NCBI RefSeq assembly: GCF_016903815.1
Contig: NZ_CP069973.1
DNA length: 64,000 nucleotides
DNA from: Escherichia coli
GTDB lineage: Bacteria; Pseudomonadota; Gammaproteobacteria; Enterobacterales; Enterobacteriaceae
Direction: 5' to 3' (one strand)
The stretch's first letter is position 1. Each line of letters begins with the position of its first letter. Positions 9,080 through 11,278 of the stretch are shown piece by piece. The notes beneath the pieces are model-generated. The model did not search any database. It was not told the DNA's origin and worked only from the letters and a program-made list of their open reading frames with translations. The position numbers and the translations under genes were made by a program.

Positions 9080-11278
9080 ATGGACAAGGAATTACCGTGG
9101 CTGGCGGATAACGCCCAAGTGGAACTGAAATATAAAAAAGGCAAAACGCCGCTCAGCCATCGCAGTTGGCCGGGCGAACCGGTGCCTGTTATCACTGAAA
9201 GCCTCATCCAGACACTGGGTGATGAATTGCTACAAAAAGCTGAGAAGAAAAAAAACATTGTCTGGCGTTATGAAAATTTTTCACTGGAGTGGCAGTCGGC
9301 CATTACGCAGGCCATCAACTTGATTGGCGAACACAAACCCTCAGTTCCGGCCCGGACAATGGCGGCGCTAGCCTGTATCGCGCAAAATGATAGCCAACAG
9401 TTGCTCGACGAAATCGTCCAACAAGAGGGACTGGAATATGCGACTGAGGTGGTGATTGCACGCCAGTTTATTACACGATGTTATGAAAGTGATCCTCTGC
9501 TAGTGACATTGCAGTATCAGAACGAGGATTATGGCTATGGTTATCGATCAGAAACCTATAACGAATTCGATCTCCGACTGCGTAAGCATCTCTCTCTGGC
9601 AGAGGAAAGCAGCTGGCAGCGTTGCGCCGACAAACTCATTGCCGCACTGCCAGGAATAACCAAAGTTCGCCGCCCTTTTATTGCTCTGATCCTCCCGGAA
9701 AAACCAGAAATCGCCAATGAGTTGGTAAGCCTTGAATGCCCGTGGACTCATTTTCATTCTAAGGAGTGGTTAAAAGTTGTTGCTATTGACCCCAGAGCGG
9801 TGAGAAAACTCGAACGCTACTGGAGCCAGGATATATTTAGCGATCGGGAAGCCAGCTACATGTCGCATGAAAACCACTTCGGCTACGCGGCCTGCGCTGC
9901 CCTTTTGCGCGAACAAGGACTGGCAGCCGTTCCACGCCTGGCAATGTATGCCCATAAAGAAGATTGCGGCAGTCTGCTGGTACAAATTAACCATCCGCAG
10001 GTCATCCGCACCCTGCTGTTAGTTGCTGATAAAAACAAACCCAGCCTGCAACGTGTAGCTAAATACAGTAAAAATTTCCCCCATGCGACGCTTGCCGCAC
10101 TGGCAGAACTGCTGGCGCTAAAAGAACCACCTACGCGCCCTGGTTATCCAATCATCGAAGACAAAAAGCTGCCTGCACAGCAAAAAGCACGTGATGAATA
10201 CTGGCGTACGCTGTTACAAACGCTGATGGCATCGCAGCCACAACTGGCAGAAGAGGTGATGCCGTGGTTAAGTACTCAAGCCCGGTCAGTGCTGAATAGT
10301 TATTTATCGGCACCGCCTAAAACGGTTATTGATAGCACCGATAACAGCCAAATGCCTGAAATCCTCGTTTCACCACCGTGGCGTAGTAAGAAAAAAATGA
10401 CAGTTCCACGTCTTGATTTGGCACCGTTCGAATTAACGCCGCAAGTTTACTGGCAACCAGGCGAACGAGAGAGGCTTGCCGCCACTGAGTCTGCCCGTTA
10501 TTTCAGCACGGAATCTCTTGCGGAACGCATGGAACATAAAAGTGGACGAGTTGTACTACAGGAGCTGGGTTTTGGAGATGATGTATGGCTGTTTCTGAAT
10601 TATATACTCCCCGGAAAACTGGATGCTGCACGCAATTCACTCATTGTTCAGTGGCATTACTACCAGGGGCGGGTTGAAGAGATCCTGAATGGCTGGAACT
10701 CCCCGGAAGCACAATTAGCAGAACAGGCGCTTCGCAGCGGTCACGTAGAAGTGTTAATTAACATATGGGAAAATGACAGCTACTCACGCTATCGTCGGGA
10801 AAAGAGTATCTGGAACCTGTATTTATTGGCACAGTTGCCGCGTGAGATGGCTTTGACTTTCTGGCTACGTATCAATGAGAAAAAGCATCTGTTCGCGGGT
10901 GAGGACTATTTTCTCAGTATCTTCGGATTGGATGCTCTACCAGGTCTGCTGTTGGCTTTTTCACATCGTCCAAAAGAAACATTTCCGTTAATTTTAAATT
11001 TTGGCGCAACAGAACTGGCCCTGCCCGTTGCCCGCGTCTGGCGACGTTTCGCGGCGCAGCGTGATCTGGCTCGCCAGTGGATTTTACAATGGCCGGAACA
11101 TACGGCTACTGCACTTATCCCTCTTGTCTTCACCAAATCCAGCGATAATAGCGAAGCTGCATTACTTGCCCTACGTTTACTTTACGAACAGGGACATGGT
11201 GAATTGCTGCAAACCGCGGCAAACCGCTGGCAGCGTACAGATGTATGGCCTGCCCCGGTCTGGCAAAACTGGTGCTGA
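9080..11278 (+). CDS. Third molR/yehI-family paralog, 732 aa, lacking the N-terminal WGR domain and the conserved C-terminal module
   Basis: ATG 9 bp after previous stop; aligns by eye to the middle of the 5276..9070 product (LPWLAD / LSHRSWPGEPVPV; FDLRLRKHLSLAEES...LPEKPEIA; LEYATEVVIARQ; HATLAALAELL). Ends at TGA 11276..11278. Correspondence to the K-12 names yehK/yehL/yehM not resolved. Confidence 0.7.
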   Translation: MDKELPWLADNAQVELKYKKGKTPLSHRSWPGEPVPVITESLIQTLGDELLQKAEKKKNIVWRYENFSLEWQSAITQAINLIGEHKPSVPARTMAALACIAQNDSQQLLDEIVQQEGLEYATEVVIARQFITRCYESDPLLVTLQYQNEDYGYGYRSETYNEFDLRLRKHLSLAEESSWQRCADKLIAALPGITKVRRPFIALILPEKPEIANELVSLECPWTHFHSKEWLKVVAIDPRAVRKLERYWSQDIFSDREASYMSHENHFGYAACAALLREQGLAAVPRLAMYAHKEDCGSLLVQINHPQVIRTLLLVADKNKPSLQRVAKYSKNFPHATLAALAELLALKEPPTRPGYPIIEDKKLPAQQKARDEYWRTLLQTLMASQPQLAEEVMPWLSTQARSVLNSYLSAPPKTVIDSTDNSQMPEILVSPPWRSKKKMTVPRLDLAPFELTPQVYWQPGERERLAATESARYFSTESLAERMEHKSGRVVLQELGFGDDVWLFLNYILPGKLDAARNSLIVQWHYYQGRVEEILNGWNSPEAQLAEQALRSGHVEVLINIWENDSYSRYRREKSIWNLYLLAQLPREMALTFWLRINEKKHLFAGEDYFLSIFGLDALPGLLLAFSHRPKETFPLILNFGATELALPVARVWRRFAAQRDLARQWILQWPEHTATALIPLVFTKSSDNSEAALLALRLLYEQGHGELLQTAANRWQRTDVWPAPVWQNWC

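Follow-up and report, generated by a model that had tools for sequence, protein, structure and literature searches.

A 732-residue reading frame in the Escherichia coli yeh locus is very probably a yehI remnant left by a microhomology deletion in one clonal lineage

Analysing a 64,000-nucleotide stretch of the E. coli contig NZ_CP069973.1 (hereafter, the window), which starts within metG and continues into the E. coli yeh region, we found three tandem homologous genes, all on the plus strand and 3' of the metG terminator (Table 1). The third, a 732-aa open reading frame (ORF), is in all probability a deletion-truncated yehI allele and most likely a non-functional remnant: a single deletion, with its break inside a 7-bp microhomology, brought yehI codon 723/724 up against yehM codon 252/253. 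A prior sequence-only reading had proposed a core-only derivative of the family, which might act as a regulatory or decoy subunit or be a duplicate in decay. The 'decaying' part is essentially right, in that this is an ordinary pseudogene, formed by a microhomology deletion in one clonal lineage. Its pseudogene status is already known, with both halves flagged as incomplete in RefSeq: in strain 7/2 (NZ_CP023820.1), which is 100% identical to the window over 8800-13000, the yehI half is flagged as a pseudogene 'incomplete; missing C-terminus' and the yehM half as a pseudogene 'internal stop; missing N-terminus'.

Table 1. Features of the metG-yeh region of the window discussed in the text (window coordinates).
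Feature	Position	Strand	Description
LexA-box-like site	1441-1456	+	CTGG-N8-ACAG, 10 nt 5' of the paralog 1 start codon
Paralog 1	1466-5263	+	WGR + DUF4132, 1265 aa, intact; absent from K-12
Paralog 2	5276-9070	+	WGR + DUF4132, 1264 aa, intact; K-12 counterpart is the 'molR' pseudogene
Truncated yehI ORF	9080-11278	+	732 aa: YehI 1-723 plus 9 yehM-derived residues (PAPVWQNWC), then TGA
Deletion junction	11249-11255	+	7-bp microhomology CCTGCCC; three-way comparison with K-12 and ETEC4069
TGA ending the in-frame yehI-yehM fusion	11276-11278	+	TGG (YehM W262) in undeleted genomes
yehM remnant	11279-12772	+	DUF5682, profile positions 276-695 only (Pfam)
yehP	12765-13901	+	VWA, CoxE-like; intact, partner ATPase gone
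yehQ	13898-15898	+	SWIM zinc-finger protein; intact

Comparing the 732-aa product with its two upstream neighbours by BLASTP, we found similarity far above chance, such that the concern that the resemblance might be spurious can be put aside: residues 2-722 align to residues 110-758 of paralog 2 (34% identity, E 5e-98) and residues 6-725 to residues 95-772 of paralog 1 (26% identity, E 1e-47). The start at paralog 2 residue 110 agrees with the sequence-only reading, which had placed the beginning of the alignment near residue 107 of the upstream paralog. That reading was also accurate on what is missing, since Pfam places WGR (PF05406) and DUF4132 (PF13569) in both paralogs 1 and 2 and matches no domain, neither WGR nor DUF4132, in the 732-aa product, and nothing in it corresponds to the ~500 C-terminal residues of the paralogs. 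These two absences have different causes, in that the lack of a WGR domain is normal for yehI and the C-terminus was lost in a recent deletion.

The third paralog is identified as yehI because the window is colinear with the K-12 locus across the 'molR' pseudogene and yehI up to codon 726 (window 5275-11258 against K-12 locus 5975-11959); colinearity resumes at window 11248-16500 with K-12 locus 15952-21204, that is, with yehM from codon 252 on. Its position directly after the WGR-DUF4132 gene or genes that follow metG is likewise that of yehI in K-12, ETEC4069 and Klebsiella huaxiensis. K-12 YehI is a 1210-aa protein with DUF4132 at residues 954-1138 and no WGR domain (WP_000356817.1), and the retained part of the window copy shares 94% protein identity with it (89-95% per 100-column block). 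Against yehI of the pig isolate ETEC4069, the retained part shows 0 nucleotide differences over 9080-11247 (2.17 kb), and because that gene is intact and encodes the full 1210 aa (WP_063086603.1), it shows directly what the window copy lost. Thus, in K-12 and ETEC4069 YehI the WGR domain is natively absent as it is here, whereas the window copy alone lacks residues 724-1210 and carries nine yehM-derived residues and a nonsense codon in their place. At 732 aa, the ORF has neither the ~1200-aa length nor the C-terminal DUF4132 that characterise the yehI group, the latter domain lying within the deleted part.

Comparison with MolR-type proteins (paralogs 1 and 2 and the K-12 'molR' pseudogene) separates shared from missing parts. 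The central alpha-solenoid is homologous (26-34% identity over ~650 residues), consistent with the BLASTP E-values above and with the alpha-solenoid predicted for an orthologue. MolR-type proteins carry WGR and DUF4132, whereas the window YehI carries neither, WGR being ancestrally absent and DUF4132 lost by deletion. Full-length YehI and its orthologues likewise have no N-terminal WGR domain of the MolR-like kind; the orthologues measure 1197-1216 aa and have DUF4132 only in E. marmotae, E. fergusonii, E. albertii, Serratia fonticola and Klebsiella huaxiensis. The WGR-less form is the ancestral, conserved state of yehI and not a derived loss. In K. huaxiensis, two WGR+DUF4132 genes are followed by one DUF4132-only gene and then by AAA_5, DUF5682, VWA_CoxE, SWIM, yehR, yehS and btsRS. 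Gene order thus shows yehI to be the third member of an old three-gene array, present in Klebsiella as well, such that of the 'decaying duplicate' the decay holds, as the remnant of a deletion, and the recent duplication does not.

To place the short form within the wider family, we drew on an exhaustive search of 1.84 billion representative proteins, which returned 329 relatives. Among the matches listed, non-fragment members measured 1150-1490 aa and there was no core-only class. The truncated form is not conserved among orthologues either: these are 1197-1216 aa long, and the junction is confined to 93 of 5426 complete E. coli genomes. The notion of a core-only derivative accordingly gives way to a normal WGR-less yehI that lost its C-terminus through a 4.0-4.3 kb deletion.

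Base-level comparison of the window with K-12 and ETEC4069, both of which carry yehI (1210 aa), yehK, yehL and yehM across the gap, resolved the deletion itself. The window tracks yehI through ...GTATGGCCTGCCC and tracks yehM from CCTGCCCCGG... onward, and the blastn matches to the two sides overlap at the junction. The overlap holds the perfect 7-bp match CCTGCCC, common to yehI codons 724-726 and yehM codons 253-255 and lying inside an imperfect match of ~16 bp. The missing segment, which measures 4003 bp on the K-12 sequence and 4272 bp on that of ETEC4069, comprised YehI residues 724-1210 (487 residues), yehK, yehL (an AAA_5 MoxR-like ATPase) and yehM codons 1-252. Because the codon phases of yehI and yehM coincide, the fusion is in frame and reads ...RWQRTDVW/PAPVWQNWC before the TGA. 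The base-level comparison revealed no foreign DNA or IS element at the junction, and an IS-mediated deletion was rejected for this reason; the deletion would instead have arisen by RecA-independent illegitimate recombination at the microhomology.

The stop that ends the ORF deserves separate attention, as a TGG>TGA change seven codons (~21 nt) past the junction closes a fusion that would otherwise be open. At this site K-12, ETEC4069 and TB06053 all have TGG (YehM W262), including TB06053 as the carrier of the closest yehM allele and ETEC4069, whose own yehM is a pseudogene through a stop at codon 703 with W262 intact. Querying the junction with TGG in place of TGA gave no 100% match and thus no carrier of the open fusion among the 5426 complete E. 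coli genomes, and the listed carriers therefore hold the stop. We estimate the chance of a random stop falling so near the junction at ~1.4%, given the ~505 remaining yehM codons. A stop beside the junction could mean that the YehI-YehM chimera was harmful and soon silenced, or that it arose by coupled, error-prone microhomology-mediated repair. That the chimera was silenced as harmful, or that junction and stop arose together, and that in the former case the remnant solenoid, made from the SOS-/BglJ-RcsB-controlled operon, might interact with the intact paralogs in ST405, we hold to be a distinctly speculative and quite unlikely combination; if true, it would offer a natural handle on an uncharacterised DNA-damage-induced system.

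Carriers were counted with a 321-bp query spanning the junction, required to be covered in a single piece, across 5426 complete E. coli genomes. The 93 carriers (~1.7%) were all at least 99% identical to the query, and among the 60 matches listed the junction sequence was 100% identical. Isolates came from humans, animals and water; one is labelled O102:H6, and three (50579417, WCHEC4533 and WCHEC96200) are described as ST405 (PMC6046176, PMC9037040, PMC5762679). Beyond complete genomes, the exact 732-aa sequence occurs on at least 1000 contigs, where it is named 'hypothetical protein'. The deletion allele belongs to one clonal lineage, of which all members typed to date are ST405. Across yehI and yehM, the window shares only 90-95% identity with most E. 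coli genomes, a divergence that we judge to be unusually high for chromosomal genes within a species. The junction at 11249-11255 together with the TGA provides a clean sequence marker for this lineage.

We next consider what the protein lost. Across an alignment of 59 sequences, conservation reached at least 90% at 88 of the 487 C-terminal positions deleted here vs 24 of the 723 retained ones, so that the lineage lost the most strongly constrained part of YehI. AlphaFold gave confident models, scoring the deleted module with a pLDDT of 91.3 and the full K. huaxiensis orthologue with a pLDDT of 86.1 and a pTM of 0.73; the YehI model consists of an alpha-solenoid to about residue 720, a linker of ~37 residues, a helical subdomain spanning 758-903 and an alpha/beta region at 913-1200. 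The 487 lost residues thus take in the linker, the helical subdomain and the alpha/beta region of DUF4132, which no other part of the family matches in conservation. Residue 723 of the E. coli protein corresponds to model residue 713, three residues into the last solenoid helix and shortly ahead of the linker, and by this model the fragment is predicted to comprise nearly a whole structural domain that might fold. Fold searches returned only generic HEAT/ARM similarities and one weak YugN/ZipA-like match. A PDB sequence search found no match for YehI and matched paralog 2 through its WGR domain only (to 2ra8), and NCBIfam was uninformative, matching YehL and YehP weakly to GvpN or chelatase-like models and paralog 2 through WGR alone. 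The dN/dS values relative to K-12 (retained yehI, 0.22; yehM remnant, 0.13; yehP, 0.06) represent ancestral constraint only because the carrier lineage is nearly without variation. The corresponding value for paralog 2 was set aside as unreliable, the K-12 pseudogene being frameshifted. With the junction region near-invariant in carriers, relaxed selection cannot be demonstrated from sequence.

The deletion also dismantled the neighbouring yehL-M-P-Q module, with yehL absent, yehM lacking DUF5682 profile positions 1-275 and its own start, and yehP and yehQ intact. No Shine-Dalgarno sequence was seen ahead of the first TTG (11333) of the yehM remnant. With the ATPase lost and yehM broken, the YehL-M-P-Q machinery would not work, and yehP and yehQ would be orphans likely to decay. 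Large WGR/DUF4132 solenoid genes often adjoin an AAA_5 + DUF5682 + VWA + SWIM-like set, an arrangement suggestive of a remodelling module that is driven by ATP and works with or on the WGR/DUF4132 solenoids. One distant relative (33% identity, L007) keeps this order, with WGR-DUF4132 followed by AAA_5, DUF5682, VWA_CoxE and a 726-aa protein, and some other DUF4132 relatives stand alone without yehLMPQ neighbours, such that DUF4132 proteins appear frequently, though not always, linked to the ATPase/VWA module. Given the standalone DUF4132 proteins, the two intact paralogs could still work with the ATPase module gone. In Serratia fonticola, the YehI orthologue adjoins an Rpn-family (Transposase_31) gene on two contigs (L004, L005) with no yehLMPQ nearby, a context that hints at a gene that may be able to move or function alone.

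Turning to described systems, the intact yeh locus pairs AAA_5 YehL with the CoxE-like VWA protein YehP, as do MoxR-type AAA+/VWA pairs (CoxD-CoxE-like; Kaur et al. 2020, PMC7159879), with the difference that the ATPase gene of this window is deleted. The same vWA-MoxR survey (PMC7159879) makes no mention of WGR, SWIM, DUF4132, YehL or a yeh system. PADLOC (PADLOC-DB v2 defence models) gave no match for 10 yeh proteins, and a known anti-phage defence system was set aside on this basis. Our literature searches found no functional study of yehI or yehLMPQ, with gene-name queries mostly returning unrelated words.

Two further elements were probably removed along with these genes. A zor-orz type I toxin-antitoxin family has been described between yehI and yehL (PMC2887945), and an H-NS-bound intergenic region lies near yehL in K-12 (PMC3686432). 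Within the yehK-yehL spacer of ETEC4069, the closest undeleted relative, we found a 29-aa zorO-like toxin ORF (L003 13847-13936, minus strand) and an OrzO-P antitoxin RNA (RF02083, 88.8 bits, Rfam; 14182-14255, plus strand), neither of which occurs anywhere in the window. From an ETEC4069-like ancestor, the deletion would probably also have taken zor-orz and the H-NS-bound region near yehL.

Expression of the remnant is possible judging from the sequence: the ORF is intact, begins with ATG 9 nt past the paralog 2 stop, keeps its ribosome-binding site (an AGGA Shine-Dalgarno sequence) and belongs to an operon whose promoter is known to be inducible. BglJ-RcsB activates the promoter of molR (PMC3950696), and molR is among the genes with a known SOS box (PMC6590174). 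The LexA-box-like site of Table 1 sits where the published molR promoter region lies, and a promoter there, upstream of paralog 1, is the likely source of any transcription reaching the remnant. The remnant may thus be transcribed from an SOS-/BglJ-RcsB-controlled promoter and translated via its Shine-Dalgarno sequence, and its product would be an isolated alpha-solenoid without the conserved module. The WGR domain is best known from DNA-break sensing by PARP, and to find WGR-domain proteins encoded in a DNA-damage-inducible operon is an interesting combination.

Genomes differ in how many tandem WGR-DUF4132 genes they carry: K-12 has just the counterpart of paralog 2 (as a pseudogene), and paralog 1 occurs in 1629 of the 5426 complete E. 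coli genomes. Over their first ~197 bp, paralogs 1 and 2 match the 5' end of the one gene present in K-12 and ETEC4069 at ~91-96% identity, and this pattern suggests that unequal crossover in the WGR-coding repeat may lead to copy loss or gain.

Weighing other explanations, we considered whether the truncated YehI solenoid is expressed and, in partnership with the two intact WGR-DUF4132 paralogs, has a regulatory, decoy or dominant-negative role. The intact ORF with its Shine-Dalgarno sequence and tight coupling to paralog 2, the truncation near a domain boundary, and the persistence of intact paralogs 1 and 2 in the lineage would all fit such a role, but the short form occurs in only the 93 genomes with essentially one junction sequence, no conserved core-only class (nor one of ~730 aa) appears among the 329 family representatives, and the protein ends in nine yehM-derived residues ahead of a nonsense codon. 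Moreover, yehL and yehM were destroyed in that one event, a pattern that resembles collateral damage and not design. We thus regard the regulatory or decoy subunit, as raised in the sequence-only reading, as very unlikely and unsupported by the available sequences. The idea that an assembly or sequencing error produced the short ORF has only the generic chance of such errors in its favour. Some single-sequence YehI fusions from metagenome-derived assemblies (P0106, P0107, P0110) do resemble chimeras, but replication refutes an artefact here, with an identical junction in 93 independently sequenced complete genomes and the sequence on at least 1000 contigs, making this explanation next to impossible.

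Slightly better placed, though still unlikely, is that the deletion was adaptive, such that selection favoured loss of yehK-yehL-yehM (and of zor-orz, if ancestral) and left the yehI remnant behind as a by-product. In keeping with selection are an essentially invariant junction across the 93 carriers from such varied sources, the abundance of the exact 732-aa protein on contigs, common yehI truncations at an A7 tract, and frequent disruption of the locus in other successful clones, e.g., by TnMB1860 in ST131 sublineage L1a (PMC9334617). Neutral hitch-hiking of the deletion would, however, equally give fixation in a clone, and the pseudogenes already present at molR and yehQ (K-12) and at molR and yehM (ETEC4069) argue for generally weak selection; our searches found no fitness data. 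The TnMB1860 insertion is likewise a clone-marking inactivation of the metG/DUF4132/yeh region in a successful extraintestinal lineage (PMC9334617), whereas here a microhomology deletion without a mobile element runs from yehI through yehM. We therefore return to the reading of a non-functional yehI remnant, which corrects a tempting misreading in which a gene remnant passes for a seemingly streamlined paralog. The lineage constitutes a natural yehI/yehK/yehL/yehM knockout, apparently lacking zor-orz too, that keeps two intact WGR-DUF4132 genes and may help the study of an uncharacterised, SOS-listed locus.

Several observations concern other disruptions of the locus. Pseudogenes recur at yeh, namely molR and yehQ in K-12 and molR and yehM in ETEC4069. 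The yehI A7 homopolymer lies at window 10391-10397 (AAG AAA AAA ATG), and loss of one A would produce a TGA right after KKK, a prediction that matches 439-aa truncated YehI forms in clusters of 120-159 sequences (P0103, P0108, P0109); such forms could reflect either genuine slippage or sequencing errors at the homopolymer. In read-archive assemblies, P0106, P0107 and P0110 have YehI fused, at or a few residues past KKK, to pieces of YehM, YehP or YehL, and either separate deletion events or chimeras formed during assembly at this low-complexity stretch may account for them. Looking up the 732-aa protein placed it in a cluster represented by a 426-aa GabT transaminase, apparently a clustering oddity of the collection and not biology. 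Lastly, the sole Rfam match at the gathering threshold in the window was the Peptidase-S11 RNA motif (RF03039, 72.8 bits) at 29614-29694 on the minus strand.
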